From: a phage
Length of the DNA: 42,515 nucleotides
Direction: 5' to 3' (one strand)
Sequence record: PP754824.1
A program made the translations under genes and the position numbers. The notes under the pieces are model-generated. The model did not search any database and was not told where the DNA came from. It saw only the letters and a program-made list of their open reading frames with translations. Positions 4,928 through 41,190 of the stretch are shown here, one piece after another (position 1 is the first letter of the stretch; each line of letters opens with the position of its first letter).

Positions 4928-4970
4928 ATTATCTCATTGATTGGGCCTCTTCTTTTAACAAAAAGTGCTA
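4928..4970 (-). promoter_or_regulatory. conserved promoter box, variant TAGCACTTTTTGTTAA, 22-nt spacer, -10 GATAAT
   Basis: Member of the repeated box family; the -10 lies inside an inverted repeat GGGCCCA..TGGGCC; about 30 nt upstream of the HNH start. Confidence 0.5.
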
Positions 4971-5492
4971 CAGCTTACTAATCACAGACTCCAGCGCTTC
5001 CTTCATCGTGCCAACGTCGTTAGCTGAAGAGTTATTGCTTATAGTAATCTCCTGCGGCTTATCGATGCCAAGTTCTTTGGAAATCATGCCAGGGTTAACA
5101 ATGCCAGACGCTGCCAGCTGATACTTCTGCTCGCGAATCACGGAATCAATGAATGCAATTACCTCGTCATAACCCGCCGACTTCCTCCATTTCTCTATTG
5201 CGCTATGGGTAACACCGCAGTAAAGGCAGAATCCTGTTAGTGTGAAGACTCGTGGCTTGTGCACCAGATTCTCGGTTACGACACCCTGGAAGCTGGCTGT
5301 CTCAATTGCCTTGATTGCCTGGCTCTCAGCCCATGAGAAGTATTTCACGGCCAGGTCGAATAGCTGCTCTGGGGTCATTATTCGGTTTTTGGACAGAGTT
5401 GTAATGTCAGAATACTTTTTGTTGTACATGGCTTTGAAGTTGCCAGAGCGAATCTTTTCTTGCGCCTGGCTGGTGAAGTTTTCGTCTTTCAT
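4968..5492 (-). CDS. putative terminase small subunit (174 aa)
   Basis: First gene after the early/late terminator and immediately upstream (HNH insertion apart) of terL; assignment by position and size. Confidence 0.5.
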   Translation of the reverse strand: MKDENFTSQAQEKIRSGNFKAMYNKKYSDITTLSKNRIMTPEQLFDLAVKYFSWAESQAIKAIETASFQGVVTENLVHKPRVFTLTGFCLYCGVTHSAIEKWRKSAGYDEVIAFIDSVIREQKYQLAASGIVNPGMISKELGIDKPQEITISNNSSANDVGTMKEALESVISKL

Positions 5493-5537
5493 TTGTGACC
5501 TCCTTTGTTGATGTAAGATTATACCATATTACAGACG

Positions 5538-5561
5538 TAAAAAAGCCCTCAAGAAGAGGGC
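5538..5561 (-). terminator. rho-independent terminator (minus strand)
   Basis: Hairpin GCCCTCTTCTTGAGGGC followed by a T-run on the minus strand; separates the early gene/tRNA region from the packaging operon. Confidence 0.6.
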
Positions 5562-5614
5562 GAATTATCGAACAACAACGAGAGAGATGAAACAACCAGA
5601 GAGTAGAACTTCTT

Positions 5615-5797
5615 TTACTTTCGCTCACGAACGTAAGTTACTAGGAATTTGTGGTAATCCGGGTCGGCACCAGACATTACCTTTACTTTCGCTACCGCTT
5701 CCTCTGAGGACTCAGCGGTAACCGACGCGATAAATTCTTGCTGACAATTCTTACAGCTTCGACCCATTAAGCGGATTGAAAGCTTAACATCCCACAT
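5615..5797 (-). CDS. hypothetical protein (60 aa)
   Basis: ORF track only. Confidence 0.4.
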   Translation of the reverse strand: MWDVKLSIRLMGRSCKNCQQEFIASVTAESSEEAVAKVKVMSGADPDYHKFLVTYVRERK

Positions 5798-5813
5798 AAT
5801 GAATCTCCTTTAT

Positions 5814-5889
5814 TGGTGTTCCGCGCTGGACTCGAACCAGCAACTAAGACTTAGGAGGTCTTTGCGTTATCCTGTTACGCCAGCAGAAC
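5814..5889 (-). tRNA. tRNA-Arg (anticodon CCU), CCA encoded
   Basis: Hand-folded cloverleaf on the minus strand: 7-bp acceptor stem GTTCTGC/GCGGAAC (one G-U), D-arm GCGT/ACGC, anticodon stem AAGAC/GTCTT with loop CTCCTAA, T-arm GCTGG-TTCGAGT-CCAGC, discriminator A, CCA. Confidence 0.8.
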
Positions 5890-5900
5890 AAATATTTAAG

Positions 5901-5917
5901 TAGCGATTGCGCTATTT
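5901..5917 (-). promoter_or_regulatory. box-family variant (AATAGCGCAATCGCTA) 12 nt upstream of the tRNA
   Basis: Palindromic variant of the repeated box; no -10 at the usual 22-nt spacing, which would fall inside the tRNA. Confidence 0.35.
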
Positions 5918-6088
5918 AAAGATTGCTGGTTACGCCTCCAGCGTCGAGTTTCTCGACCGGTTATTGAGGTTTGCGCCTTATCCTCTTTGGCCAACTTGCC
6001 ATGCACGCTACTTAATTAGCAATGGACTTTGTGTTGCGCTCCGTGCGCCGTTCTAGCTTGGCTAGCTCGTATGCCTACGAGATAAATA

Positions 6089-6355
6089 CTAATACTTTCC
6101 TGTCAGTGATGCAATCTCTTTTTCATACCTAACGAAATCCAGCGTGCTTTTACAAACCATTAGGTCAACATTTGAGTTAACAATCTTCCCGCAAACTGTA
6201 CAGATTAGCTTTGTCCTACACCCATCCTGATACGAATCCTCAAACCAACTTATGCGTCGGAATAATCTATATTTATGCTTATGTAGAATTCCGACCTTAA
6301 ACATTAGTGACTTGATCTTATTCATAAAGGCTATTCCCATTCTCATCGTGGTCAA
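6089..6355 (-). CDS. hypothetical protein (88 aa)
   Basis: ORF track only. Confidence 0.4.
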   Translation of the reverse strand: MTTMRMGIAFMNKIKSLMFKVGILHKHKYRLFRRISWFEDSYQDGCRTKLICTVCGKIVNSNVDLMVCKSTLDFVRYEKEIASLTGKY

Positions 6356-6554
6356 CGCGACCTTTTCTATACCCAGCTATCCACACAAATTTATCCCTCG
6401 CAATTAGCGTAGACACAGGACCCCAAACCTGAGTAATCAGTGCTGCGACAACTTTATCGTCTTTCTTCTTTGCGCCCAACTTTCCGTACTCGTCGTTCAG
6501 CTTGTCAGCCTGGTGCTTAACTGCGTTGAAGTATGCATCTTCTAATCCGAACAT
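6318..6554 (-). CDS. hypothetical protein (78 aa)
   Basis: ORF track; promoter box and -10 upstream. Confidence 0.45.
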   Translation of the reverse strand: MFGLEDAYFNAVKHQADKLNDEYGKLGAKKKDDKVVAALITQVWGPVSTLIARDKFVWIAGYRKGRVDHDENGNSLYE

Positions 6555-6583
6555 TTTCTGCCCTCTCGTTGTTTGATTGGTTG

Positions 6584-6630
6584 ATTATATGGCATCAATG
6601 CCTGTCACGTTTAGCTATTCGTGCTGTCTA
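6584..6630 (-). promoter_or_regulatory. conserved promoter box (CAGCACGAATAGCTAA), 22-nt spacer, -10 TATAAT
   Basis: Box overlaps the 3' end of the upstream small ORF; spacer contains hairpin GGCATTGATGCC. Confidence 0.55.
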
Positions 6631-6769
6631 CATCTGGCCCTCTATCAAAAGTTGCTAATACTTCGTCTGTATCGCCATCGCACTCAAACGTGTCACCGTA
6701 TTTCTCATTGAAGTAGATTAAATCCTCAACAAATTCATCACATTTCGGGAATAAACATGTGTTAAGCAT
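6611..6769 (-). CDS. small hypothetical protein (52 aa)
   Basis: ATG at 6769 overlaps stop of upstream ORF (ATGCTTAA); below the 60-aa ORF-track cutoff; stop codon lies inside the promoter box. Confidence 0.35.
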   Translation of the reverse strand: MLNTCLFPKCDEFVEDLIYFNEKYGDTFECDGDTDEVLATFDRGPDVDSTNS

Positions 6770-6920: not shown

Positions 6921-6938
6921 CTAATCGCATGCCTTAAA

Positions 6939-7073: not shown

Positions 7074-7083
7074 CTTGTTTTCC

Positions 7084-7263
7084 TTAAATCTTGTTCAATT
7101 GCTCAAGAATTTCGTAAGCCAGTTCTCTAGCTTGCTCTTCTGTTAAGTGGATGGTGTGAACTTGAGGTTCGTCACGCATTCCGCAAGCCTGAGCAATGAT
7201 GAATGTTGCGTAGCCGTCGGAGTGGTTAGCCTGAAGTTTTGGTTCTGATTGTCGGAATCTCAT
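7084..7263 (-). CDS. small hypothetical protein (59 aa)
   Basis: ATGA start/stop overlap with the upstream gene 7260..7469. Confidence 0.35.
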   Translation of the reverse strand: MRFRQSEPKLQANHSDGYATFIIAQACGMRDEPQVHTIHLTEEQARELAYEILEQLNKI

Positions 7264-7469
7264 TCTTCAATTACCTCGTATTCGCCTTCTTGCAAACTAA
7301 TCTCGTTGCCGATTGTTACTAAATCAGTATCACGAATCGCCTGAACTGATAAGCTACCATCTTTATACTTACCGGAAACATCAACAATATCACCAACCTG
7401 GAAACCGCAATCAGCAAGGCTAAGTTCGTCACCATCAGCAATGTCAACTTCAATAATCTTGATTCTCAT
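7260..7469 (-). CDS. small acidic protein (69 aa)
   Basis: ORF track; strongly D/E-rich; promoter box plus CATAAT upstream and TGGAG RBS. Confidence 0.5.
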   Translation of the reverse strand: MRIKIIEVDIADGDELSLADCGFQVGDIVDVSGKYKDGSLSVQAIRDTDLVTIGNEISLQEGEYEVIEE

Positions 7470-7500
7470 CTCTATACTCCATCGTGTTGTCGATGTGGTA

Positions 7501-7548
7501 ATTATGCCGGATTTCTCCGGCGATTGTTTAGCAATTCGTGCTATTGTC
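7501..7548 (-). promoter_or_regulatory. conserved promoter box (AATAGCACGAATTGCTAAACAATCGCC), 22-nt spacer, -10 CATAAT
   Basis: Canonical box copy; TAG stop of 7541..7879 lies inside the box; spacer hairpin CCGGAGAAATCCGG. Confidence 0.6.
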
Positions 7549-7879
7549 CATTCAGGAGTAATTTAGCTTCCCGATAAAACTCCATCGCCGCCTCAACCTC
7601 TTCCTCGCTGTACCGCAAGTGGTATGGTAGTCTACTAGGATGCTCACCTTCGTATACTTTGAAGTTAGGTTCCCAACACTCATCAAGGATTGCAGGGTGA
7701 ACATAAATCTTATCACCAATCATGCAGACGAGATTCATCTTCTCTAGGTCTGGGATAAGTCCCTCCTGAAGCCTCGCCGTTAGTCTGACATTACGTGAAT
7801 CAACTGGTTTTGATTTCCTGAGGCCTTCGTATAATGACCTAACACCAAGCACCCCTTTCCCGTTTCTTCCCATTTTCAT
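7541..7879 (-). CDS. stand-alone paralogue of the C-terminal domain of the 527-aa P-loop protein (112 aa)
   Basis: NGKGVLGVRSLYE...MIGDKIYVHP aligns with NGKGVVGVRSLYE...LIGDKIYINP at the C-terminus of 10672..12255. Confidence 0.6.
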   Translation of the reverse strand: MKMGRNGKGVLGVRSLYEGLRKSKPVDSRNVRLTARLQEGLIPDLEKMNLVCMIGDKIYVHPAILDECWEPNFKVYEGEHPSRLPYHLRYSEEEVEAAMEFYREAKLLLNGQ

Positions 7880-7966: not shown

Positions 7967-8074
7967 TCAGTTATTACTGATTGCCACGCGAAGAATTGAG
8001 TAACCATCACGCTGCGCAATTCTTACGATTTCCTCGCCACTTAGCTTCACATCATTGAAATCAAACATTCCCAT
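7967..8074 (-). pseudogene. short ORF (35 aa) paralogous to the N-terminus of the 527-aa P-loop protein; probable remnant of an internally deleted gene copy
   Basis: MGMFDFNDVKLSGEEIVRIAQRDGYSILRVAISNN versus MFDFNEDKLSVEQVMAIAATDNLPPLRVAINAN; followed about 85 nt later by the C-terminal-domain paralogue. Confidence 0.45.
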
Positions 8075-8592
8075 TATTTGGTCTCCTTGATAAGTTCCTG
8101 GTAAGCGGTTAGTGCGAACATTGCGCCATTAAGCTCCTCGCCTTTCAGGTGGATTACGCTCGGAGTAACTGCAAGAAGTCGCTTCTTGAACTTCTCAATG
8201 ATAGCCGCCTCCCTCTCTTCCCCTGCTTTGCTTCGTGAGCCATGATTGATTGCACCAGGAACAAGCGAGATTACCGCAGAACGAACCTCCTCACCATTAA
8301 ACTCCATATCCTTTATCGAGAACATGGACCTGACGTTTGCAGCCTTAATTTCAGGCATGCGACTTACTGTGTTTGAAACGTATGAGGACTTCAGCTTATT
8401 GAGATTGTACTTACCATCCGGCTTAAGGTCTTCATCATAAACCTTGCTAATTTCCTCCTTGCTAAGCCCGTACACCTGGCGAACAATCATACGCACTGGT
8501 ACTGCAAATGATTTCGTGTCGCTATTTAAAGCCTGAGTCGCCATGTAGCGAACTACTTCACCAAGACTTACTGCTTCTTTACGTTCTGACAT
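8074..8592 (-). CDS. hypothetical early protein (172 aa)
   Basis: ORF track; first gene of the leftward early unit. Confidence 0.55.
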   Translation of the reverse strand: MSERKEAVSLGEVVRYMATQALNSDTKSFAVPVRMIVRQVYGLSKEEISKVYDEDLKPDGKYNLNKLKSSYVSNTVSRMPEIKAANVRSMFSIKDMEFNGEEVRSAVISLVPGAINHGSRSKAGEEREAAIIEKFKKRLLAVTPSVIHLKGEELNGAMFALTAYQELIKETK

Positions 8593-8634: not shown

Positions 8635-8662
8635 ATAGTATCACACATCTACATGTTATCAA
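8635..8662 (-). promoter_or_regulatory. candidate sigma70-type early leftward promoter (-35 TTGATA, 16-nt spacer, -10 TACTAT)
   Basis: Read on the minus strand about 40 nt upstream of the 8592 start; overlaps three spaced TGTTATC repeats. Confidence 0.4.
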
Positions 8663-8845
8663 GTGTTATCTCATGTTATTTTCAGCCAGATACGCCAAAC
8701 CACTCTGAGAGCCGCGCCAGAAGCGGTGTAAATGTCGTGTGTATGAATTTCCGCGGAAATGTCGGGGGTATACCTATATATATTAATATAGATAAATATA
8801 GTCATTTTCATAAAAAACTATCGACCCTCCCCATATGACAGATAT

Positions 8846-8950
8846 ACAAGATATACATATATATAATAATAATAATAATAATAAAGTAAAAGGTTGATAT
8901 ATATAGATATTATTATGTAACCATTGCGTAATTGCGCGTTATAGGCGTAC
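8846..8950. repeat. AT-rich ~100-bp element, copy A, with (TAA)n microsatellite
   Basis: Near-identical to 24310..24420: shared GATATACA, (ATA/TAA)n, AGTAAAAGGTTGATATATATAGATATT, ATGTAACCA, TGCGTAA. Confidence 0.7.
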
Positions 8951-9111
8951 AGCATTCCTACGGAGGGTGGGTGCATCTACACAACATAACTTCGGTAACG
9001 TGTACATCCAAAATGGCTCAGCCAGAATCAAAATCAACTTGTATGGTAGTCCTTCCTCTATTCATTCACTCCAACACAAATAATTGCTAAATTCGCAACA
9101 ATCAAAAAAAT

Positions 9112-9180
9112 CATTGCATCAGATGCAATATTGCTATATGTGCAATAATGAGATGAATCATTGCAATAACTGCAATAATA
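9112..9180. repeat. iteron-like cluster of five TGCAAT(A) repeats including palindrome ATTGCATCAGATGCAAT
   Basis: Direct reading of the non-coding region just upstream of the rightward early promoter. Confidence 0.5.
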
Positions 9181-9193
9181 CATAAACCCAACG

Positions 9194-9239
9194 AATAGCA
9201 CTTTTTGCTAATGACAAACATTGGTAACGAGACCATAAT
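9194..9239 (+). promoter_or_regulatory. conserved promoter box (AATAGCACTTTTTGCTAA), about 22-nt spacer, -10 CATAAT
   Basis: Plus-strand copy ahead of the rightward early genes; leader CATCAACAACGAGGAGAGAGAT precedes the ATG at 9267. Confidence 0.55.
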
Positions 9240-9266
9240 GAATCCATCAACAACGAGGAGAGAGAT

Positions 9267-9860: not shown

Positions 9861-10021
9861 TGCTATTACCATCTGAGATTAACTATTTTGATCTGGAAGT
9901 TATTAGTTCTTACAGCGGCAAGGGCTGGCCTTGCGGGGAATGGTTCAACGAGGACTTGCTTGAATCTCACGAGATTATGCTTAAGGCGATTGAGAAGGCG
10001 AGAAATAGCACGAATTGCTAA
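9860..10021 (+). CDS. small hypothetical protein (53 aa)
   Basis: Hand-translated; ATG overlaps upstream TAA; coding 3' end (ARNSTNC) is encoded by the promoter box. Confidence 0.35.
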   Translation: MLLPSEINYFDLEVISSYSGKGWPCGEWFNEDLLESHEIMLKAIEKARNSTNC

Positions 10022-10048
10022 AGCCCTTCGGGGCTTTTGTTGTATAGT
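10004..10048 (+). promoter_or_regulatory. conserved promoter box (AATAGCACGAATTGCTAA), 22-nt spacer, -10 TATAGT
   Basis: Canonical box; spacer is hairpin AGCCCTTCGGGGCT plus T-run; leader CATCGAAACGAAAGAG. Confidence 0.6.
10021..10038 (+). terminator. rho-independent terminator-like hairpin inside the promoter spacer
   Basis: AGCCCTTCGGGGCT followed by TTTTGTTG. Confidence 0.5.
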
Positions 10049-10080
10049 TTCCTCATCGAAACGAAAGAGAACAAGTAATC

Positions 10081-10245: not shown

Positions 10246-10598
10246 TGACTACTACCATAACTAAAAATTTCATTAGCAAAGACAACCAACTGTTTAAAGC
10301 TCGCGTTAAAGATGGTGTCGAGCAAATCAAGAAAGATGGCAAATGGGTTAATCTGGAAGAACGTGGTAAATACATTAAGACCAGAACGCTTTACGTGACA
10401 CATGTTAACCACAAATCTGGCGTTAAGAAGGATTTCAAAGAAGGAAAGAGATACCAGGTGCTAATGCATAGCGGGATGGGTCAGTCTGCTGGTTACATTT
10501 ACGACGAAGATGGTAATGCATGGCAGCTATATCGAAGCGAAGATGTTGGTTTCTACACTCTTTGCCAGACTTACCTATTTGAATCATCTTACAAATAG
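10245..10598 (+). CDS. hypothetical protein (117 aa)
   Basis: ORF track. Confidence 0.5.
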   Translation: MTTTITKNFISKDNQLFKARVKDGVEQIKKDGKWVNLEERGKYIKTRTLYVTHVNHKSGVKKDFKEGKRYQVLMHSGMGQSAGYIYDEDGNAWQLYRSEDVGFYTLCQTYLFESSYK

Positions 10599-10641
10599 CA
10601 GCACGAATTGATAATGCATTATAAGCGGCTGTTGATATAAT
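10594..10641 (+). promoter_or_regulatory. conserved promoter box (AATAGCAGCACGAATTGATAA), 22-nt spacer, -10 TATAAT
   Basis: The -10 lies inside inverted repeat AGCGGC..GCCGCT; upstream of the 527-aa P-loop gene. Confidence 0.55.
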
Positions 10642-10671
10642 GGCCGCTCAGAAACAATACGGAGAGAAGTA

Positions 10672-13991: not shown

Positions 13992-14022
13992 TTTTGAATC
14001 CTCTGTTGTTTTCGATTTGGTG

Positions 14023-14067
14023 ATTATACCTAATTGCTGTGGCGATTGTTTAGCGATTAGTGCTATT
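14023..14067 (-). promoter_or_regulatory. conserved promoter box (AATAGCACTAATCGCTAAACAATCGCC), 22-nt spacer, -10 TATAAT
   Basis: Canonical architecture; leader AATCGAAAACAACAGAGG. Confidence 0.6.
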
Positions 14068-15284: not shown

Positions 15285-15536
15285 TCATACAACCTCCTTC
15301 AGCCAGTAATCAATTAAATTCGCACTAATTGCTAATTTCTCGTCCAGGTCAGTCATGCAGAGATTGCCGCACGCTGGCGAGTAATAAATCTGAACCCACT
15401 TTCCATCCTTCGTCTTCGCATTAACATCCGCATAGTCAGGAGGAAACCAATCAGCAATAGGTATCGCCCTAAACTTAGCACCACTACTCCCACTCACCAA
15501 ATCATAATGCTCAGGCTGAAAATCTAATCCAAACAT
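15285..15536 (-). CDS. hypothetical protein (83 aa)
   Basis: ORF track. Confidence 0.45.
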   Translation of the reverse strand: MFGLDFQPEHYDLVSGSSGAKFRAIPIADWFPPDYADVNAKTKDGKWVQIYYSPACGNLCMTDLDEKLAISANLIDYWLKEVV

Positions 15537-16324: not shown

Positions 16325-16362
16325 TTTCTTTCTCTCTTCGTGTGTTTCGTTTCGATGAAGTG

Positions 16363-16407
16363 ATAATACACCACTTCATCAATTCGTCTTTAGCAATTCG
16401 TGCTATT
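16363..16407 (-). promoter_or_regulatory. conserved promoter box (AATAGCACGAATTGCTAA), 22-nt spacer, -10 TATTAT
   Basis: TAG stop of 16403..16822 lies in the box; -10 inside inverted repeat GATGAAGTG..CACTTCATC; leader CATCGAAACGAAACACACG. Confidence 0.6.
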
Positions 16408-16822
16408 TTCTAATCATCTCTGCGAATGCAGCAAGAAAACCATCTCTGCCGTAGGCAACTCCTGCGAAACCGCCTGATTCCCTTACGCTTTTTAGGAATG
16501 ACTTTTGCTCATCACTTACTGGGCTAGCCTGTGTTTTCCCAGCCCTCTTTAGCTCTATTGCGCCAAATGGATAACTTCCTCGTAATGACTCAGGTATTAG
16601 AAATAGGCAGTCTGATACGCCTTTAAGAAGTCCTTTAGCCTGGTCTTTCCTTGCCTGACCAATGCTCTTCATTGATTCATTAACTGTGTGCCAGTAAACA
16701 ACCTGCGGATAGTTATACTTAACCCAATCAGAGCAAAAGATTTGTTCGTCGTCTTCCTTCGGGCATGACTTCACCGGGCCGCCATAGAACTCGAGGTAGT
16801 CAGTTTTGTCTGTAACTTTCAT
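16403..16822 (-). CDS. VRR-NUC domain nuclease (139 aa)
   Basis: PD-(D/E)xK-type pattern GVSDCLFLIP ... GAIELK. Confidence 0.65.
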   Translation of the reverse strand: MKVTDKTDYLEFYGGPVKSCPKEDDEQIFCSDWVKYNYPQVVYWHTVNESMKSIGQARKDQAKGLLKGVSDCLFLIPESLRGSYPFGAIELKRAGKTQASPVSDEQKSFLKSVRESGGFAGVAYGRDGFLAAFAEMIRK

Positions 16823-18813
16823 AACAATTCTCCAAAATTCTTAAAAGCGATTATATCTTTACCTTTGCCGTTTTTTCTATGTGTAACCTGCACTGGTGCG
16901 CGGAACTTATCCACGTTCGCCATAATCATTCTCGCATTGCGAAGTCTGCCAATTCTTGTGGCTTCAGCGCGATTCTCTATATGAGCAAGGCAGAAGTTCT
17001 TCCATAGCACGCTGCAAACTCGATGGTCAGACTCGGGGTTGAAGAATTCCCATGCATTAAACCGATCTCCGTTATGAGCCATGATATTGTACTTAACAAC
17101 AATTCCGGTTTGATTCTTACTTAAGCCAACTTGAAAATCATAAACAAGAAGGTAATCACCACGACGATACATCTTACCTGTAAGGTTAGCATTGGGGTCT
17201 TTAAGCATCTCTCCGCACTCTCGACAGACCTTCGCTGCTATATCATTGCGAGTCCCGCACCCTTTTTTGATAATAGCCTTTGTCTGCAGGTCTGTAATAT
17301 CTTCACAAACTGTAAAAGTAAAGAAGTGCTCACATCTCTTTCCGTCAATCTTATTTCCGCATCTACGAGCAAAAGGCGAATTCTCGTATGAGCAAATTGG
17401 GCACACTCGAACCTCTGAATCACCATTGCGTGATGACTTAAACTTCTCGGCCTGAATCTCTTCAATTATTGGATCAAAGTAAAGTTCAGCCATATCATCA
17501 AGTGCGCCAGCAAAGTCCAGGACTAAGTGGTCATCCTTTTTCATACCAATTTCAATATGTTTCTTCTTGAGAATTCGCATTCCACGACCAAGAAGCTGAA
17601 TCATTAATGTCAGGCTTCCAATCCTGCGGAGTATGACACTTGTGTCCCACGGAGGCACCGAAACGCCTGTGGTTAAGCATCCAATCTGAAAAATAATCTT
17701 GTACTTTCCGGTCTGGCATTCATCTAGAATTTCCCTTCTCTTCTTCTCACCAGTGGAATCAGTGATTATCGCGTAAGGATAACCATCGGGTAGAGCAGCA
17801 GCCGCTTCATCGCAGTGCATTTTACCAGCGCAAGTTACCAGTGCGGCGTTACGTGTTTCAAGTATTTTGATAACGAACCCCATTATCTTTTGTGTCATCG
17901 TCTGGTTTTCGTGAATCTTTGCAGCCATTGCATCCATTTCTTTTTTGCTGAAATCCTTAACGCCATCACTTCCATCAGGTGCAAACTCGCTAAGGTCATA
18001 ACCCAAATCACCAACCTCACCGTAAACAGTTGGAACAACGAATCCCAAATCAACCAGGTAACTGGTCGGAACTTGCATTACCGTCTTGCGCCAGAAGCCA
18101 CGAATATTTGGGTTACTAACTACAATGTGGTCGTTGTTACGATACGGGCTACCAGTCAAGCCGAATATACGGAGCTCGCGACCATACTTCTCTTTGCAGC
18201 GGCGCTTCATTTCAGTGATGATTAGTGTGTACTGCGCACGACCAGTTCCAAGAAATCCGGTATTCACTCCATCCTTGAAAACCATTTCGCCTTTCTTGGT
18301 GCTCATTTGCTCAAATGTCTCTTCGTTCTCTTCAGCTTCTACGATATCCATGTGGTCCACCATGTGTGCCTCATCTATTGCGATAACCGCAGGAACATAG
18401 TCACCAAGACCCTTAAACAATCCATTGGCAGCCGTTCCTTCACTAGCCACTATGGTTGGGTAATAAACTGATTTAACGTTAAGGCCAGCGCAATATACGC
18501 TATTACGAATGCCAAAGCTGCGAAGTTCTTCAGCGTTCTGACTGATAATTTCAGACTGGCGAGAAAGTACCATATAAGGAAGGCCAAGTTGCTCCATGCG
18601 TTTACCAATCATGGCAATAATGATTGTCTTGCCAGCCGATACAGACAGGTCTGCGATGAACGGAGCTTCGTACTTAGCAATATTCTTGCCGATTTGGTCG
18701 AATGTCACGCACTGGAATGGATACGGCGTAATATCTCCAAACTGATAGTCTCTCTGAATCTGCTTAATCTTTTCTTGGTCAAAGTTTGCCACTAAGCGTT
18801 CTACTGGAAGCAT
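16819..18813 (-). CDS. SF2 DEAD/DEAH-box helicase with C-terminal zinc-ribbon region (664 aa)
   Basis: Motif I SVSAGKT, motif II IDEAH, helicase C-terminal region, then Cys clusters CPICS...RRCGN and CRECG. Confidence 0.85.
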   Translation of the reverse strand: MLPVERLVANFDQEKIKQIQRDYQFGDITPYPFQCVTFDQIGKNIAKYEAPFIADLSVSAGKTIIIAMIGKRMEQLGLPYMVLSRQSEIISQNAEELRSFGIRNSVYCAGLNVKSVYYPTIVASEGTAANGLFKGLGDYVPAVIAIDEAHMVDHMDIVEAEENEETFEQMSTKKGEMVFKDGVNTGFLGTGRAQYTLIITEMKRRCKEKYGRELRIFGLTGSPYRNNDHIVVSNPNIRGFWRKTVMQVPTSYLVDLGFVVPTVYGEVGDLGYDLSEFAPDGSDGVKDFSKKEMDAMAAKIHENQTMTQKIMGFVIKILETRNAALVTCAGKMHCDEAAAALPDGYPYAIITDSTGEKKRREILDECQTGKYKIIFQIGCLTTGVSVPPWDTSVILRRIGSLTLMIQLLGRGMRILKKKHIEIGMKKDDHLVLDFAGALDDMAELYFDPIIEEIQAEKFKSSRNGDSEVRVCPICSYENSPFARRCGNKIDGKRCEHFFTFTVCEDITDLQTKAIIKKGCGTRNDIAAKVCRECGEMLKDPNANLTGKMYRRGDYLLVYDFQVGLSKNQTGIVVKYNIMAHNGDRFNAWEFFNPESDHRVCSVLWKNFCLAHIENRAEATRIGRLRNARMIMANVDKFRAPVQVTHRKNGKGKDIIAFKNFGELL

Positions 18814-18853
18814 TTTAAATATCCTGATAGTTCTTTAGTTCGTTGCATTGATG

Positions 18854-18897
18854 TATAATAACAGCCATCGAACCCATTGTTTAACAAAAAGTGCTAT
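18854..18897 (-). promoter_or_regulatory. conserved promoter box, variant AATAGCACTTTTTGTTAA, about 22-nt spacer, -10 TATTAT
   Basis: Upstream of the helicase start at 18813; sits in the divergent region before the plus-strand gene at 18910. Confidence 0.5.
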
Positions 18898-18909
18898 TGA
18901 GGTAATGAG

Positions 18910-19392
18910 ATGTGTGAAATCGACAAGCGAACTATTAACGGCAATAACGGAACCGTGCGCACAAAAGACAAAAAGCAACGCAAACGACCATCAGGCTACT
19001 ACGTATTGAAAGATGAGGTAAAGGCTGGGCTACGTGCTCGCCTGGAGATGGTTCTTGATTTCTACGGTACAAAGGCGAACATCGCAAAGCAGTTAAATGT
19101 GTCCAACCAAGCTGTATCGGAATGGTTTAACCGCGGTATGATTTCGGCTCGAGGGGCTCAGCGAGCACATAATGCGTACAAGCGAAATAAGGAGGGATTT
19201 CGAGCTACATTCTGCCGACCAGACCTGCAATTCGACGGAAACGGAAAACCGCTAACACTTCGATGCAAGAAGCGCCATATGCTTCGCGTAGTTACCGATG
19301 CAGAACTAGCAACAAAGCCACCCTGTCGACCATGGCGAAAGAATAAGATTGCCAACGAAGCCGCACGAAAAGCTAAAGAAAGATCTGAATGA
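18910..19392 (+). CDS. HTH DNA-binding protein (YdaS/Cro-like), putative transcriptional regulator (160 aa)
   Basis: GTKANIAKQLNVSNQAVSEWFNRGMIS resembles Cro/YdaS-type helix-turn-helix; basic flanks. Confidence 0.55.
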   Translation: MCEIDKRTINGNNGTVRTKDKKQRKRPSGYYVLKDEVKAGLRARLEMVLDFYGTKANIAKQLNVSNQAVSEWFNRGMISARGAQRAHNAYKRNKEGFRATFCRPDLQFDGNGKPLTLRCKKRHMLRVVTDAELATKPPCRPWRKNKIANEAARKAKERSE

Positions 19393-19403
19393 GTATGTAT
19401 AAT

Positions 19404-19432
19404 GCCCTCAAGTTAAATGCGAGGGCTTTTTT
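19404..19432 (+). terminator. rho-independent terminator
   Basis: GCCCTCAAGTTAAATGCGAGGGC followed by TTTTTT; abuts the ATG at 19433. Confidence 0.6.
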
Positions 19433-20356: not shown

Positions 20357-20376
20357 CCTCCTTCGGGAGGTTTTTT
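20357..20376 (+). terminator. rho-independent terminator
   Basis: CCTCCTTCGGGAGG followed by TTTTTT. Confidence 0.7.
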
Positions 20377-20407
20377 ATTGCCTGAAAGATGGTAGAATGA
20401 ATTTTAT

Positions 20408-20423
20408 CAATTAGTGCTATTTT
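20408..20423 (-). promoter_or_regulatory. box-family copy in anomalous orientation upstream of the plus-strand tail fibre gene
   Basis: Plus strand reads CAATTAGTGCTATTTT, i.e. the box on the minus strand; no good -10 at the 22-nt spacing. Confidence 0.3.
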
Positions 20424-22125: not shown

Positions 22126-22776
22126 TTAGAATGTGTCGATTTGTTGTGATTCTACTTTAATCTTTTCTTCAGGACTACTTTTTTCTGTAACTTTCTTTGG
22201 TGTTGCTGGGTTGAAGCCAGTCATCGCATTTGCCTCAATCTCTGCCTTGCGCTCGATAATGTGAGGTTCAAAAACCTTCCATCCAGCCGCATCAAGTGAC
22301 TGCTTAGCCTCTTTCCAGACGTTACGAAGTTCATCAAGAGTATTGCATTTCTCTAGCTCTCGCTTGAAATCCTTAACGCCTTTGGCTGCAAGATTTCCGT
22401 CATCATCAGCCTGGCTAAGACCCAAGGCAGCTGTGATACCGTAGCGACGAGCGTATGTTAAAGCTGATCCGTAACCTTGTGCATCATTCTTGCTGATTGG
22501 GACTATCATTAAGAAGCTTACCCACTCTCCAGATTCAACATGAAACAGCTTTGTCTCGACCTTCATGCGATTTGTTTGTTCGTCATCAATCACACTCTGG
22601 AACATCACCAAACCACACTCATATAAACCAGGCTCAACAGCCGCCAAAACGTCTTCTAAGGTAGCGTATTTATTCTTTAAGTGAGAGTTCTGCTTAGACT
22701 TTTCAGCCTTCGCAAATAGCGATTTAGCAGTGTGAAGCGCTTTTAAAATTGATTTGCATAATTCTGAAATTTGCAT
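22126..22776 (-). CDS. Erf-like single-strand annealing protein (216 aa)
   Basis: GYGSALTYARRYGITAALGL resembles the ERF-family core; sits between SSB and exonuclease. Confidence 0.6.
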   Translation of the reverse strand: MQISELCKSILKALHTAKSLFAKAEKSKQNSHLKNKYATLEDVLAAVEPGLYECGLVMFQSVIDDEQTNRMKVETKLFHVESGEWVSFLMIVPISKNDAQGYGSALTYARRYGITAALGLSQADDDGNLAAKGVKDFKRELEKCNTLDELRNVWKEAKQSLDAAGWKVFEPHIIERKAEIEANAMTGFNPATPKKVTEKSSPEEKIKVESQQIDTF

Positions 22777-22805
22777 CTTTAACCTCGTTCGTTGTTGATT
22801 GGATA

Positions 22806-22850
22806 ACTATACCTAAGTCATCCCGTTTTGTTTTAGCAATTCGTGCTGTT
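22806..22850 (-). promoter_or_regulatory. conserved promoter box (CAGCACGAATTGCTAA), 22-nt spacer, -10 TATAGT
   Basis: Box overlaps the stop of the exonuclease gene; leader AATCAACAACGAACGAGG. Confidence 0.6.
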
Positions 22851-24499: not shown

Positions 24500-24544
24500 A
24501 ATAGCACGATTTGCTAAAGACAACTGGCTATCTTTAGGTATATT
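24500..24544 (+). promoter_or_regulatory. conserved promoter box (AATAGCACGATTTGCTAA), 22-nt spacer, -10 TATATT
   Basis: Plus-strand copy ahead of the 24625..26101 gene set. Confidence 0.55.
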
Positions 24545-24624
24545 TAGGCGCGTGGCGGCAATGGTGCTGTCAACTCCTCCTCAAATTGAGGAAAAGAACT
24601 TAGTTAACTCCTCAAATCTTAGGA

Positions 24625-25456: not shown

Positions 25457-25726
25457 ATGAACTACGAGAAAGAGATTGCAAAAGCGAAGAAAGAGCTCAA
25501 TGAAAAGGTTGTGACAATCCTGGTAAACAACGCTCTTTTTGTTAAGCGCGCAGAGTTACTAGCAGATGACGACCCTGTCAGAAATGAGTTAATAAATCAC
25601 ATCACTGAGTCTTCATTTATTATCTCTGGCGCCCTTAAATGCACGGTCGAGCAGGCTCTTAACTTGATATTCGCTTATCGGCATTACAATGTTAAGTCCA
25701 TTCCTGGCTGTGAGGATATTCACTAA
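25457..25726 (+). CDS. hypothetical protein (89 aa)
   Basis: ORF track. Confidence 0.45.
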   Translation: MNYEKEIAKAKKELNEKVVTILVNNALFVKRAELLADDDPVRNELINHITESSFIISGALKCTVEQALNLIFAYRHYNVKSIPGCEDIH

Positions 25727-25769
25727 TAGCACTAATTGCTAAACACTTATCGCAAGGATGCGGTATTAT
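25725..25769 (+). promoter_or_regulatory. conserved promoter box (AATAGCACTAATTGCTAA), 22-nt spacer, -10 TATTAT
   Basis: Leader CATCGAAACGAAACACAC then RBS AAGGAA and ATG at 25810. Confidence 0.6.
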
Positions 25770-25809
25770 CTTTCCATCGAAACGAAACACACTTACTAAG
25801 GAATACAAA

Positions 25810-33190: not shown

Positions 33191-33661
33191 TTATTTACCC
33201 CCGTGATTTTTGTGATAATTAAGGGCTATCTCTGCGCTTTTTCTCGCTTTTACAGCCTCTTCAAAATTGCTTGTTGTTAATAGAATTCTCTTACCTATCT
33301 TTGATATAAATTTTTTCTTTGTTTTGCAGTAACTAACCACGACAACGCCAGTTTTATTTGATGAGTACATGCTTTTGTTTTTCATGTTATCACTCTTCGT
33401 TACCAGTCTTATGTTTGATATGTTGTTGTTTTTTCTAGAGTGGTCAATGTGATCAATTTCCATGTCATCAGCTATTCTTCCATTAAACATTTCCCATACA
33501 ACCCTATGGGCCATTACCTTTACACGCTTGTATTGAACGATTATGTAACCTCTCTTTTCACAAAAGAAACCAGCAACATCGCCAATATTGTATTGTATTG
33601 CTGGCTTTATCTTCCAATAAAGAACGCCATTTCTATAATCAAAAATATCATTCCAGTTCAT
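33191..33661 (-). CDS. HNH homing endonuclease (156 aa)
   Basis: EIDHIDHSRKNNNISNIRLVT HNH motif; N-terminus MNWNDIFDYRNGVLYWKIK paralogous to 4393..4899; inserted between tape measure and M. Confidence 0.85.
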   Translation of the reverse strand: MNWNDIFDYRNGVLYWKIKPAIQYNIGDVAGFFCEKRGYIIVQYKRVKVMAHRVVWEMFNGRIADDMEIDHIDHSRKNNNISNIRLVTKSDNMKNKSMYSSNKTGVVVVSYCKTKKKFISKIGKRILLTTSNFEEAVKARKSAEIALNYHKNHGGK

Positions 33662-33689
33662 TTTATCTCCTTATGATTTTAATGAGTTG

Positions 33690-33734
33690 ATTATAGCAAG
33701 CCAAATCCTTTTGGCTTTACCATTTTGTGCTATT
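33690..33734 (-). promoter_or_regulatory. conserved promoter box variant (AATAGCACAAAATGGTAA), 22-nt spacer, -10 TATAAT
   Basis: Spacer hairpin AGCCAAAAGGATTTGGCT; RBS AAGGAG; drives the HNH gene. Confidence 0.55.
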
Positions 33735-37667: not shown

Positions 37668-37685
37668 TTTGTTTTCTCTCTCGTT

Positions 37686-37826: not shown

Positions 37827-37865
37827 TTTGCTTACCTCTATAATCCATCTCGTTTCGATAAAGTA

Positions 37866-37909
37866 ATAATAGCAAATCCCTGCCACACGTCTTTAACAAA
37901 AAGTGCTAT
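37866..37909 (-). promoter_or_regulatory. conserved promoter box variant (ATAGCACTTTTTGTTAA), 22-nt spacer, -10 TATTAT
   Basis: Immediately after the major-tail terminator; leader TTATCGAAACGAGATGG. Confidence 0.55.
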
Positions 37910-37912
37910 CAA

Positions 37913-38599: not shown

Positions 38600-38610
38600 A
38601 TATTTTCCTT

Positions 38611-39009: not shown

Positions 39010-39455
39010 TATCGTTTACTCCTCGCTTCAGCAACGGCTTCCTCAAAGTATCGACCAAGTCTGATATTAACTACACCAAGTACACCTGCTGGCGCTTGCT
39101 GCGATGCACCGTATTCAAGATCTGACGCATAATCTAGCCTGTTGGTTATGTAGATAACCTTTGTTGCTGGTGAGTTAGCTACTGCTCTGGCTTGTCTTGC
39201 AAGGTACCTTTTTGTATCACCGCCAGTCTTGTCGTAATCATTTAACGACTGTACTGCTGGTGAGTTTGCTGTAATCTGCCAGTTAGCCTTAAACCTACCA
39301 GTATCAACAGGAGATAAATCAACAATGGCGTTAGCTGCTTTAATTACAGTGCCTGAAACAATTTCAGAAAAACCATCATCAGCTCTTGAAATCCAGTCAT
39401 TGATAGAGTTCGTGAATGTAGCTAAGCCACCAACATTATTAGCCATAAGCAGCAA
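39009..39455 (-). CDS. tail completion-like protein (gpZ position) (148 aa)
   Basis: Gene order only. Confidence 0.45.
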   Translation of the reverse strand: MLLMANNVGGLATFTNSINDWISRADDGFSEIVSGTVIKAANAIVDLSPVDTGRFKANWQITANSPAVQSLNDYDKTGGDTKRYLARQARAVANSPATKVIYITNRLDYASDLEYGASQQAPAGVLGVVNIRLGRYFEEAVAEARSKR

Positions 39456-39822
39456 TCCTCCTCAGAATTGGCCTGTATGCGACTACAGTACCTGTTGGTT
39501 TCACTGGTCTCGGGTCGACTACAGTGTAAGTTTCATCGTCCACAATAATCCTGTAGCCCTGTAAGATTGGGACTTCGGAAGTGAAGATTCCACGCTTATC
39601 GCCAAACTGAATATACTCACCATCAATATCTCTGGTTTTAATCTCCCTCACCAGCCCCTTGATTAATGCAGTGCCGCCAGATACAGGAACCTCGACACCA
39701 TCGACAATCTCCACCCCACCTTTACCAGTTTCCATGGTAAACGTACCATCGCCATCACTAAAGATATTGATTCCCGTTCGCATTAATGATTCGATTTGAG
39801 AGTAATTCATCGGCAACCGCAC
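39439..39822 (-). CDS. head-tail joining protein (gpFII position) (127 aa)
   Basis: Gene order only. Confidence 0.45.
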   Translation of the reverse strand: MRLPMNYSQIESLMRTGINIFSDGDGTFTMETGKGGVEIVDGVEVPVSGGTALIKGLVREIKTRDIDGEYIQFGDKRGIFTSEVPILQGYRIIVDDETYTVVDPRPVKPTGTVVAYRPILRRIAAYG

Positions 39823-40217
39823 CCACGCCCACCGGACGTAACCAATCCAAAGCCACCACCTTTCTTACGCAGAAGGTTCCAGTACAGACGACCCCACGGG
39901 GTGGAAGTCAGTGCTGATTGTGATTGAGACGTTGATTCATAGCTGATAGAGAACTCACCACTCAGTGAGTAACTTGCCACCTTCTTACCGTAATCATCCA
40001 AAGACTCATTCTGCTTAAGTGCACCATCAAGAAAGGCAATGTGCATAGTGTACAGTGCCAGTGCCTTGTAAGCATCATCACCAAACTTACTGGTACAGAT
40101 GTAAAGCTTGGCTAGCTCAAGCCATACGTCAAGTGTTTCATCAGAAACATTCTTAAGGGCAGGAACTAATGACCTCATGAATGCTAATGCTTGTTCGTTC
40201 ATATTACCTCCATACAA
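39807..40217 (-). CDS. head-tail connector / head completion protein (136 aa)
   Basis: Gene order only. Confidence 0.45.
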   Translation of the reverse strand: MYGGNMNEQALAFMRSLVPALKNVSDETLDVWLELAKLYICTSKFGDDAYKALALYTMHIAFLDGALKQNESLDDYGKKVASYSLSGEFSISYESTSQSQSALTSTPWGRLYWNLLRKKGGGFGLVTSGGRGCGCR

Positions 40218-40243
40218 AAACGGACGCCGAAGCGCCCATTTTG

Positions 40244-40489
40244 TTATTTGTACTCGTTGCCAGTCTCGGCTTCAGAGATGGTCTTTGGTTCTTTGCGTTT
40301 TTTCTGACTGTTGATTTCTTGCGCCACTTCTTTAGTTGCCTTGTAGTCACCTTCAATGGTGAGTTTACCTTCAGCAATCAGGCGTTTCAGTCCATCACAA
40401 AGCTCACTTGCTTCAATTGTGTCGCCAGGTAAGTATTTAGCACCTTTATAAACAATCATGCACGCGCCAGTGTGTTCTAACTTAATCAT
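40244..40489 (-). CDS. hypothetical protein (81 aa)
   Basis: ORF track. Confidence 0.45.
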   Translation of the reverse strand: MIKLEHTGACMIVYKGAKYLPGDTIEASELCDGLKRLIAEGKLTIEGDYKATKEVAQEINSQKKRKEPKTISEAETGNEYK

Positions 40490-40519
40490 TACTTGCTCCT
40501 TTTATTAATTGATGATTGA

Positions 40520-41128
40520 TTATAGCACTAAACAATCGCCTTCGTGAACCCCATTGGCGTTTCCGTACTCGCCGAATATTTCTTTACACCAACTGTCGTA
40601 ACACTCCTTAGCCTCTTCAATTGTGTCAAACCTTTTAGCCATCCTTACATCTCCGCAATCCTTTTGTATCTGGGCTTTCCACTTCCCCCTTGATTTATCG
40701 TAGCTAACACCTTTAAATCCACTCTTGTTCCTTTTGTATAGGCTCGTATTCATCATGTTCTCACTTCGAGTAACAACCCTTAGGTTTTCCACCCTATTGT
40801 TTAATGAGTTACCATCAATGTGATCTATCTCACCTGTCGGCCAACTCCTGTGATGATAAAACCACTTTAACTTATGCATTGAAACGTGAAACTTCTTCCC
40901 GGAAACTTTAATACATAGCTTCCACATCTTACTTTCTGGGCATGTTGGGTTTGGAGTGAATTCACCTCCAGCAACCTTTCCGGCGCACCTTGAATTCCAT
41001 ACATTTGTAAACCTATCATTTCCCGGCTTTACTTTCCATGTCATAACGGGACTTTCAGAATCTGATTCAAGTCTTGATGTTAGCTCTTCGTGAGTTAGTA
41101 GTTCTTCAATTTTCATTTTCGCCTCCAT
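40520..41128 (-). CDS. HNH homing endonuclease (HNH_3 + AP2-like) (202 aa)
   Basis: EIDHIDGNSLNNRVENLRVVT HNH motif and SGFKGVSYDKSRGKWKAQI AP2-like segment; inserted after the major capsid gene. Confidence 0.85.
   Translation of the reverse strand: MEAKMKIEELLTHEELTSRLESDSESPVMTWKVKPGNDRFTNVWNSRCAGKVAGGEFTPNPTCPESKMWKLCIKVSGKKFHVSMHKLKWFYHHRSWPTGEIDHIDGNSLNNRVENLRVVTRSENMMNTSLYKRNKSGFKGVSYDKSRGKWKAQIQKDCGDVRMAKRFDTIEEAKECYDSWCKEIFGEYGNANGVHEGDCLVL
40521..40540 (+). promoter_or_regulatory. truncated box copy (ATAGCAC joined directly to TAAACAATCGCC) at the 3' edge of the HNH insertion
   Basis: Plus strand reads TATAGCACTAAACAATCGCC: the two halves of the long box lacking GAATTGC. Confidence 0.3.
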
Positions 41129-41144
41129 TGTTTTGATGGAAACA

Positions 41145-41190
41145 AAAATACCACCTTTCGGTGGTATTGTTTTGTCATTTAGTGCTATTA
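41145..41190 (-). promoter_or_regulatory. box-family copy (AATAGCACTAAATGACAAAAC) upstream of the HNH gene, overlapping the major-capsid terminator
   Basis: Box followed by hairpin ATACCACCGAAAGGTGGTAT and TATTTT; RBS GGAGG before the ATG at 41128. Confidence 0.45.
41147..41172 (-). terminator. rho-independent terminator after the major capsid gene
   Basis: ATACCACCGAAAGGTGGTAT followed by TTTTGTTT on the minus strand. Confidence 0.65.

Follow-up and report, generated by a model that had tools for sequence, protein, structure and literature searches.

In the 42,515-nucleotide stretch of phage DNA held in sequence record PP754824.1 (here called the window, at its full length), a conserved 18-bp box stands in place of the -35 element ahead of genes of the early, replication, lysis and HNH/moron classes, on either strand, and this box agrees at each of the 10 specified positions with the marbox, the site of the host activators MarA, SoxS and Rob. 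The distance from the box to the -10 hexamer is the one found at the host micF promoter. We consider it likely, though well short of assured, that a host activator of the MarA/SoxS/Rob family reads the box at sigma-70 promoters of the class II marbox type. For the wider proposal, namely, that the Drexlerviridae (T1, TLS, Rtp, the Klebsiella weberviruses and relatives) have wired nearly all of their promoters to the host mar/sox/rob regulon through a cassette that carries a read-through hairpin and doubles as a recombination joint, the chances of being right or wrong appear even. An 8-kb stretch of the window matched the Escherichia phages CY1_Cui-2023 (97.8%; here, CY1), Rao1 and TR1, a 1.5-kb stretch of the tail operon was a 99.9% match to IME542, and remoter matches were to Rtp (~83%) and other Braunvirinae; the gene order was that of Rtp in reversed orientation. 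Because of these matches, the sequence places the phage, a coliphage, among the Drexlerviridae (the T1 family) as one of the Rtp-like members.

The box was found far more often than expected. With three or fewer mismatches, AATAGCACGAATTGCTAA was matched 13 times in the window, against 0.10 matches expected, and a position weight matrix (PWM) scan added the copies 4972(-), 18898(-), 19359(+), 37910(-), 41189(-) and 9073(+), which brought the number of box-like copies to 19, spanning positions 4955 to 41189. The same scan found 18 copies in CY1, 19 in Rtp, 22 in T1 and 20 in TLS. A first-pass annotation of this DNA had described a family of boxes lacking a -35 and lying at a fixed distance from a -10 hexamer, and had proposed a matrix scan to check it; the description proved accurate. 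A -10-like hexamer lay 34 to 36 nt from the G of GCAC in 16 copies and exactly 35 nt from it in 14, an offset that equals a gap of 21 nt past the 18-mer, with the hexamer beginning at the 22nd nucleotide as that annotation had stated. The spacing exceptions were copy 9194 (22-nt gap) and copy 18898 (20-nt gap). In all 16 promoter-type copies, the box, the -10 and the downstream open reading frame (ORF) were on one strand, and a leader of 21 to 35 nt and a Shine-Dalgarno sequence preceded the ORF. For at least 10 of the 16, the upstream ORF had its stop codon within the box or abutting it, and each of the three HNH genes (4393-4899, 33191-33661 and 40520-41128) was preceded by a copy, as were early and replication genes, all in keeping with the earlier description. 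The terS gene (4968-5560), which heads the long structural operon, had no box promoter of its own and lay just past a strong terminator (5545-5561), and boxes within the late operon of the window occurred only with inserted HNH genes or small ORFs. Canonical -35/-10 pairs were not enriched in the window (45, versus 40.7 +/- 6.5 expected).

The anatomy of the sites was examined in a box-anchored alignment from the window, Rtp, T1 and TLS, which comprised 99 sites under a loose definition, and in the 63 sites from these genomes that had a clear -10; numbering assumes a transcription start site (TSS) 7 nt after the hexamer. Among the 99 sites, two blocks were conserved, at -51..-44 (AATAGCAC) and -40..-33 (TTG-Y-TAAA), with three variable but A/T-rich positions between them, no conservation from -32 to -15, and, further downstream, conserved G-14, TAnnnT at -12..-7 and C-1/A+1. 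The best hexamer was at offset 35 in 61 of the 99. Within the 63-site set, G-14 was present in 79% and T-15 in 49% of the sites, A-11 and T-7 were conserved, and the best match to TTGACA at a spacing of 16 to 18 nt reached three or fewer of six positions in 56 sites, which bears out the lack of a canonical -35.

The marbox for MarA, SoxS and Rob has been given by the Grainger laboratory as 5'-gcannwwntgnnaaa-3', with class II defined as a forward marbox overlapping the -35. A marbox has its GCAC and YAAA elements separated by one helical turn, and in forward orientation the consensus is on the non-template strand, its GCAC distal to the -10 and its AAA proximal. Written as GCA-CG-AA-T-TG-CT-AAA, the phage box agrees with all 10 specified positions in the forward orientation. 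Exact marbox matches numbered 12 in the window (1.04 expected; maximum of 5 in 100 random sequences), 14 in Rtp, 20 in T1, 19 in TLS and 13 in Klebsiella phage Sin4; in the controls they numbered 1 (lambda) and 0 (T7). Ten of the 12 exact sites in the window, and 12 to 14 sites per genome in Rtp, T1 and TLS, had a -10 at offset 35. In the information profile of the 63 sites, the marbox-specified positions averaged 1.84 bits, the two W positions were A or T in 62 and 63 of the sites, respectively, and the variable box positions coincided with the N positions of the marbox. Additionally, the mar operon's own marbox, ATGCCACGTTTTGCTAAATC, is nearly the same as the phage box of the TTT group, ATAGCACTTTTTGCTAAAAC.

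The geometry of the sites was equally that of class II promoters. In the cryo-electron microscopy structure of Rob with RNA polymerase (RNAP) at micF, the contacted bases are G-47, A-45, G-38, T-37 and the A:T pairs at -35/-34, and Rob occludes sigma region 4 from the -35. In MG1655, the offset from the G to the TAGAAT of micF is 35 nt with the same strand arrangement, equal to the phage offset, and with the hexamer at -12..-7 the G of the phage box falls at -47. The class II promoters of Salmonella have no recognizable -35, and its forward marboxes are concentrated near -41; the phage boxes share both features, with a center near -41 and no -35. Other host promoters served less well as controls for the offset, since host marboxes are degenerate and no curated site list was used: fumC gave 34 to 35, the sodA match was 43 nt from its hexamer, and the nfo and inaA marboxes went unrecognized at two or fewer mismatches. 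Thus, the phage boxes and the class II marbox promoters typified by micF have in common an asymmetric site of 15 to 20 bp (GCAC...W...TG-YY-AAA), the forward orientation, G-47, the 35-nt offset, the missing -35 and a normal sigma-70 -10. Unlike their host counterparts, the phage boxes are on a virulent genome, with at least 16 promoters per 42 to 50 kb, are nearer to the consensus with the additional A-48 and T-40, and come joined to a hairpin on the sense strand and to a leader that is conserved.

Under our proposal, each full copy would be a class II marbox promoter for sigma-70 polymerase. The marbox would comprise the 18-mer and the next base, with GCAC (-47..-44), a pair of pure A/T positions (-42/-41) and TTG-Y-TAAA (-40..-33), and it would lie over the place of the -35. 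Downstream of it would come G-14 (accompanied by T-15 at about half of the sites), the TAnnnT hexamer of the -10 (-12..-7) and a start at C-1/A+1. A host activator of the MarA/SoxS/Rob family would, as a monomer, contact the box through a pair of motifs of the helix-turn-helix (HTH) type; the default activator in Escherichia coli would be Rob, with MarA or SoxS in this role under stress, and in other enterics it would be RamA. The activator would displace sigma region 4 from the DNA and recruit RNAP through sigma region 4 and the C-terminal domain of the alpha subunit (alpha-CTD), as Rob does at micF. Most transcription units of virulent T1-like phages would then run on unmodified host polymerase with a host activator, which would explain the scarcity of canonical promoters in T1-like genomes. 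The service of every gene class by the box is better matched by a constantly available factor than by one that defines a temporal class.

The distribution of the box and the search for a phage-encoded reader bear on this proposal. The box was present in multiple copies in 1,129 phage records, nearly all from Enterobacterales hosts, with Klebsiella, Escherichia, Salmonella, Shigella, Enterobacter, Citrobacter, Cronobacter, Pantoea and Serratia among the host labels, and Enterobacterales hosts have MarA/SoxS/Rob/RamA. In the window, a tblastn search with MarA gave nothing better than an E value of 0.59, and Pfam found no AraC-type, MotA or AsiA domain among ~40 ORFs. The second-best MarA match, at noise level (E 0.89), was to the first gene of the leftward early arm, which encodes a DUF7174 protein of 172 amino acids (8592..8074, minus strand). 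Its promoter (8662..8635, minus strand) is canonical, with TTGATA-16-TACTAT, an extended -10 TG and no box, and no other nearby gene has such a promoter; because a canonical, box-free promoter drives the first early gene, DUF7174 was the natural candidate for a MotA-like activator. A counterpart with 26% identity stands first in TLS. The AF2 model of the protein (pLDDT 77) has an alpha/beta fold, with a confident N-terminal domain that has no fold match in the PDB, and the only sequence likeness, from a PDB search, was a weak one to ribosomal protein uS4 (E 0.003). Since Foldseek against the PDB returned nothing below E 0.1 and no AraC fold, we rejected DUF7174 as a phage-encoded MarA mimic.

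The first-pass annotation had named two other candidate binders, neither of which is favored by the results. One was the HTH protein encoded at 18910-19392, a Cro-like protein with a single HTH below the Pfam cutoff. Serratia phage ZDD2 has only its replication-recombination and tail-tip modules in common with the window, at 30 to 43% identity, yet its boxes are identical at 19 of 19 positions, and one copy has the leader CATCGAAACGAA. No counterpart of the Cro-like protein was detected in ZDD2, where the syntenic ORF gave no alignment at an E value of 100 or lower and no Pfam match. Because the box word stays identical in ZDD2 while the phage proteins diverge, a reader outside the phage is suggested, and the Cro-like protein is, on these comparisons, an unlikely reader of the box. 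The other candidate was a duplicated domain (7541-7879 and 11990-12255). The duplication is real, in that the first 65 residues of the 112-amino-acid early protein at 7541-7879 (-) were 51% identical (E 1e-20) to the last 65 of the DUF3987 protein at 10672-12255 (+), but it was undetected in T1 and ZDD2, and nothing ties it to the box. The stand-alone copy may compete with the DUF3987 helicase-like protein or regulate it. A different target for the Cro-like protein was also considered. A tandem duplication at 9083-9176 (+), of 47 nt with 74% identity and just upstream of the rightward early promoter, has two operator-like TTGCA-N5-TGCAA palindromes (9114 and 9161). The cluster is present in CY1, with three palindromes, and absent from Rtp, T1, TLS and Sin4. 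We therefore dropped this palindrome (9113-9176) as a family-wide HTH operator, as it is restricted to the window and CY1; it could be the target of the Cro-like protein in the lineage of the window.

The most serious alternative, although in our estimate an improbable one, is that the box is read by a phage-encoded activator, either the Cro/cI-like HTH protein (18910-19392, the T1 gp23 family) or an unrecognized early protein expressed from the few canonical promoters. The box, centered at about -42, would then work in activation like that by lambda cI at PRM or by T4 MotA, and its likeness to the marbox would be coincidence or mimicry. Several observations speak for this alternative, weigh against a host activator or do both. 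The gene for the Cro-like protein is conserved in T1 (gp23 family), TLS, Rtp and Sin4. A partial dyad, TAGCA-N5-TGCTA, is centered at -42 and complementary in 57 to 97% of sites per position, and a cI-like dimer bound there would likewise be a class II activator; lambda cI at PRM, which occupies a site at about -41/-42 and touches sigma region 4, is the model. The first genes of both early arms appear to have activator-independent promoters (8662..8635, minus strand, and 9211-9239, plus strand), the one at 9194..9246 probably working without an activator because a good -35 precedes its -10, and this makes a MotA-like cascade possible. The box is conserved more strongly than host marboxes, with A-48 and T-40 beyond the 15-mer consensus, and some boxes have no fitting promoter: 20421(-) in the window, and the T1 copies 8361 and 25020 and the TLS copy 24907, which precede the start codons of terS and tail-J by 5 to 17 nt, too little for a promoter to fit between. 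The hosts given in a few Drexlerviridae records are Vibrio, Pseudomonas or Campylobacter; the Vibrio phage Vc1 and the Pseudomonas phage PsgS01F are 82 to 95% identical to Salmonella/Citrobacter phages or group with coliphages, and these labels are unconfirmed. Without inducers, Rob, although constitutive, is largely sequestered, and MarA and SoxS are scarce. Finally, a Keio screen with the T1-like phage LL5 gave receptor and lipopolysaccharide genes only. Since rob, marA and soxS were absent from its results, no single one of them is essential, an outcome compatible with three redundant paralogs, with basal activity of the extended -10 or with a phage-encoded reader. Against a phage-encoded reader stand the fit to all 10 marbox positions at the micF offset, the identical boxes in ZDD2 where no HTH homolog is detectable, the service of all gene classes, many early ones included, and the lack of a DNA-binding fold match in DUF7174 and of MotA, AsiA or AraC domains. 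The symmetry of the site adds to these. The first-pass annotation had taken the core for an inverted repeat, AGCA-N5-TGCT, which is exact in only 7 copies, and dyad symmetry never extends to the invariant flanking positions: of two pairs that hardly vary, A-50/A-34 is dyad-complementary in only 2% of sites and C-44/T-40 in 0% (n = 63). Lambda cI operators are dyad-symmetric, whereas the invariant positions of the phage box are not. As judged from the aligned sites, the asymmetry fits a monomer with two different HTH motifs, such as MarA or Rob, and not a symmetric dimer; because the conserved positions are asymmetric, we favor the monomeric two-HTH reader. The first-pass inference of a factor-dependent promoter class thus stands in part, as the box replaces the -35 and is most likely protein dependent, but given an exact host marbox in the class II position, the notion of a phage-encoded MotA-like factor was probably wrong.

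The remaining explanations are less probable still. That no protein factor is needed, with the box serving as an UP-like target of alpha-CTD, an unusual upstream sigma contact or a site of intrinsic bending in addition to an extended -10, we regard as doubtful. Extended -10 promoters need no -35, and G-14 and T-15 are frequent; an UP-like element was among the proposals of the authors of the TLS re-annotation, and both the AAA (-35..-33) and the W pair (-42/-41) are rich in A/T. However, UP elements are A/T tracts at -40 to -60, whereas G-47, C-46 and G-38 are the best-conserved positions of the box (2.0, 2.0 and 1.8 bits), with C-44 also among the most conserved; moreover, a precise 18-bp word kept across subfamilies is unexpected for alpha-CTD contacts, and the box equals a known transcription factor site. 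We give still less weight to a mainly negative or structural role, in which the box would serve a repressor of phage or host as a stoperator or roadblock, or would mainly be a joint for the recombination or homing of mobile cassettes, and its adjacency to a -10 would be secondary. This would accommodate the boxes without a -10 (20421(-) and the T1/TLS copies at start codons), the indel junctions in boxes and the HNH gene with its own box described below, and the stoperator idea comes from the TLS authors as well. The stoperators of mycobacteriophage L5 are asymmetric sites, oriented with transcription, at which a bound phage repressor blocks elongation. The box is oriented with transcription as well, but stoperators are not kept at a fixed distance from a -10, and the fixed 35-nt offset, G-14 and C-1/A+1 look promoter-like at most sites. 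The virulent T1-like phages have no evident repressor system, and any conserved repeat recombines, which leaves the geometry unexplained. A sigma-54 element (-24/-12), suggested by the likeness of TAGCACG..TTGCT to TGGCACG-N4-TTGCW, can hardly be credited at all. The sigma-54 consensus has GG at -24 and GC at -12 (TGGCAC-N5-TTGC), with an equivalent G-to-G spacing of 11 nt. The likeness to the box is a superficial one of GCACG and TTGC: the G-to-G spacing in the box is 9 nt, 2 nt short, the equivalent of the first G is A in 62 of the 63 sites, and a sigma-70 -10 follows at a fixed 21 nt downstream. The T4 MotA box, (a/t)(a/t)(a/t)TGCTTtA, is centered at about -30. The logic of the MotA/AsiA middle promoters is shared, with a box for the -35 and an activator standing in for the contacts of sigma region 4, but the box of the window has a different sequence, spans -51..-33 and is centered near -41, no MotA or AsiA homologs were found by Pfam among the ~40 ORFs, and the box serves all gene classes. 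The sigma-54 and MotA-box readings were therefore rejected on spacing and position.

The proposed class II marbox promoters of these phages are coupled to an RNA hairpin. Inverted repeats of at least 5 bp bracketed the -10 in 23 of the 63 sites, versus 6.4 expected when arms were permuted between sites (maximum of 14 in 500 permutations), and hairpins entirely within the spacer occurred in 10 (2.2 expected). RNA of the -33..+7 region folded with a mean of -10.9 kcal/mol, compared with -4.4 for shuffles (p ~5e-11), reached -5 kcal/mol or lower in 52 of the 63 sites, and folded better on the sense strand than on the antisense strand (-10.9 versus -8.8; p ~3e-5), with 60 G-U pairs among the 509 pairs of the folded stems. 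The spacer hairpins reported in the first-pass annotation are thus real and significant, but most of them bracket the -10 and are not confined to the spacer. The 5' arm is mostly at -31..-16 and the 3' arm at -9..+5; because transcripts started at the promoter would lack the 5' arm, the hairpin would be restricted to read-through transcripts. Most stems are not followed by a U-tract. In read-through messages from upstream, the hairpin may insulate, terminate or stabilize 3' ends. At the primase promoter (19398-19445), a hairpin and U-run (gccctc...gagggcttttttATG) directly follow the -10, the 5' arm is upstream of the predicted +1, and the U-run overlaps the primase start codon; T1 has an annotated terminator at the same place. 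From this layout, the primase hairpin should stop read-through RNA and let promoter-started RNA escape.

The start of the transcript was also conserved. The leader reported previously was confirmed, with C-1 and A+1 followed by a TCGAAACGA-like sequence, and the predicted initial transcribed sequence at +1..+13 of most copies was AUCGAAACGA(A/G) or AUCAACAACGA. The leader is conserved across T1, TLS, Rtp and Sin4, as well as in the one ZDD2 copy, and might enhance translation, serve as an RNase E site or help to determine promoter escape. Rfam contained no family matching the leader or the hairpins.

Comparison with close relatives placed gene gain and loss at the boxes. In CY1, two boxes (16562 and 17772) flank a 1.2-kb module of two genes, where the window has a single box (14050-14067). 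The left flank of that box and 'AATAGCACT' match CY1 box 16562, and 'AATCGCTAA' and the right flank match CY1 box 17772; because the two halves match different CY1 boxes, the indel junction lies inside the box. Similarly, phage 2725-N35 lacks both the HNH gene at 33191-33661, which sits between the tape-measure gene and the minor-tail gene, and a box at that junction, and in the window the box ahead of this HNH gene begins at the tape-measure stop codon. By this comparison, the HNH gene is an arrival that brought its own box copy. We propose that conserved boxes act as homology patches for the gain and loss of modules such as HNH genes and small ORFs. Composite terminator/promoter cassettes known as promoter-early stem-loops (PeSLs) drive modular shuffling in T4-like phages. 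The cassettes of the window resemble them as repeated units of stem-loop and promoter that flank small variable genes and in having an indel junction between close relatives inside the motif. They differ in sequence and phage family, PeSLs contain ordinary early sigma-70 promoters, and the stem of a PeSL precedes the promoter, whereas the stem in the window brackets the -10.

The repeat itself has been described before. The 2024 re-annotation of TLS reported a 21-nt direct repeat, aaATAGCACnnnTTGnTAAAA, at 21 places, oriented with transcription, ~76 nt upstream of start codons and falling into GAA, TTT and AAA subgroups. Similar repeats were noted by its authors in T1, Rtp and Rogue1; canonical intergenic promoters numbered just three in their analysis, and they left the function undecided among a stoperator, an enhancer-binding site and an UP element. 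The T1-like 21-nt repeats (aaATAGCACnnnTTGnTAAAA) and the box of the window are the same element, with identical consensus, transcription direction and subgroups, and the distance from the box to the ATG in the window, ~70 to 85 nt, compares with ~76 nt in TLS. Neither a fixed -10 nor the marbox was connected with the repeat in the TLS paper; both links are drawn here. Our literature search returned no paper connecting the marbox, Rob or MarA with T1-like phages and no TSS data for the Drexlerviridae. Thus, the repeat was already known in TLS, T1 and Rtp, and since the search gave no such link, its identity as a marbox and the reading of the cassette as a class II marbox promoter appear to be new.

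Table 1. Box copies and their promoters in the window, in order of position (strand in parentheses)
Feature	Downstream gene or setting	Box	-10 hexamer	Predicted +1	Other features
4921..4972 (-), box promoter	HNH gene 4899..4393	4955-4972 (TGTAGCACTTTTTGTTAA)	GATAAT 4928-4933	4921	GGCCCA/TGGGCC inverted repeat brackets -10; terS TAG in box
6577..6628 (-), box promoter	Small early ORF 6554..6318	6611-6628	TATAAT 6584-6589	6577	
7494..7545 (-), box promoter	ORF 7469..7260	7528-7545, perfect 18-mer	CATAAT 7501-7506	7494	Spacer hairpin CCGGAgaaaTCCGG; TAG of ORF 7541-7879 in box
9073..9090 (+), degenerate copy	Heads 47-nt tandem duplication upstream of 9194 promoter	9073-9090 (AACACAAATAATTGCTAA)			
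9194..9246 (+), promoter	Gene 9267.., first of rightward early arm	9194-9211, AAT replaces AAA	CATAAT 9234-9239		Good -35 ATGACA, 17-nt spacer
10004..10055 (+), box promoter	ORF 10081..	10004-10021, perfect 18-mer	TATAGT 10043-10048	10055	Leader CATCGAAACGAAA (10055-10067); terminator-like spacer hairpin; TAA of upstream ORF is box end
10597..10648 (+), box promoter	DUF3987 helicase-like gene 10672-12255		TATAAT 10636-10641		GCGGC/GCCGC inverted repeat brackets -10
14016..14067 (-), box promoter	Lysis cluster (ORF 13991.., then holin, endolysin, spanin)	14050-14067	TATAAT 14023-14028		
15318..15335 (+), atypical copy	Antisense in minus-strand ORF	15318-15335 (ATTCGCACTAATTGCTAA)	None		
16356..16407 (-), box promoter	ORF 16324..	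Perfect 18-mer	TATTAT 16363-16368		Leader CATCGAAACGAAA (16344-16356); 9-bp inverted repeat GATGAAGTG/CACTTCATC brackets -10; VRR-NUC gene TAG in box
18848..18898 (-), box promoter	Helicase gene 18813..16819		TATTAT 18855-18860		Offset 34
19359..19410 (+), box promoter	Primase gene 19433..		TATAAT 19398-19403		Within 3' end of HTH gene
20404..20421 (-), orphan marbox	Faces bidirectional terminator between primase and tail-fiber genes (region 20355-20421)	20404-20421, perfect	None		
22799..22850 (-), box promoter	Erf recombinase gene 22776..22126		TATAGT 22806-22811		Exonuclease TAA abuts box
24500..24551 (+), box promoter	ORF 24625/24649-25314		TATATT 24539-24544		Long leader, ~98 nt
25725..25776 (+), box promoter	Small ORF from 25810		TATTAT 25764-25769		Leader CATCGAAACGAAA (25776-25788)
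33683..33734 (-), box promoter	HNH gene 33661..33191		TATAAT 33690-33695		TGc (extended -10)
37859..37910 (-), box promoter	Small-ORF insertion in tail operon (ORF from 37826)		TATTAT 37866-37871		TGc
41138..41189 (-), box promoter	HNH-AP2 gene 41128/41116..40520		TATTTT 41145-41150		Spacer hairpin CCACCgaaaGGTGG and T-run, terminator-like for major capsid gene; capsid TAA abuts box

Some individual copies deserve comment (Table 1). The -10 of the helicase gene and the TATAAT of the divergent, plus-strand HTH gene share an A/T-rich 6-bp hexamer (18854-18860), and the helicase box lies within the leader of the HTH gene (18910-19392); the shared hexamer together with the marbox in this leader suggests that the two genes may be under mutually exclusive or coupled regulation. 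The site of the Erf promoter is kept at the same place in Rtp and TLS. The arrangement of the orphan marbox 20421(-) is conserved in Rtp (33761) and T1 (34901); because of this conservation, the orphan is probably functional, and it might drive an antisense RNA or act as a decoy or a boundary site. Elsewhere in the window, the ~600-bp divergent region between the early arms includes an extremely A/T-rich stretch (8769-8920) in which direct and inverted ATA/TAT repeats interlock and an (ATA)n run occurs; it may represent an origin, a region near pac or one of the H-NS type. A tRNA-Arg gene with anticodon CCT (5814-5889) lies on the minus strand between terS and the small early ORFs. T1-like phages have been reported with one arginyl-tRNA.

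To our knowledge, T1-like phages encode no RNA polymerase or sigma factor, and how they are transcribed has been unclear since the T1 genome. Reading the box as a class II marbox makes this puzzle experimentally simple. The hairpin and the recombination behavior of the cassette would provide a second example of gene-shuffling promoter cassettes, outside the T4-like phages. The genes marA, ramA, soxS and rob are often upregulated in resistant isolates. If the proposal is true, it would bear on phage therapy against Klebsiella and E. coli, would be relevant to the control of T1-type contamination in fermentation and would offer a source of compact, strong, activator-dependent promoter parts. Overall, a lytic phage family would depend on, or sense, an activator of the host antibiotic and stress response, with its expression driven by Rob, MarA, SoxS or RamA and possibly tuned by the bile-salt, antibiotic or oxidative-stress state of the cell.

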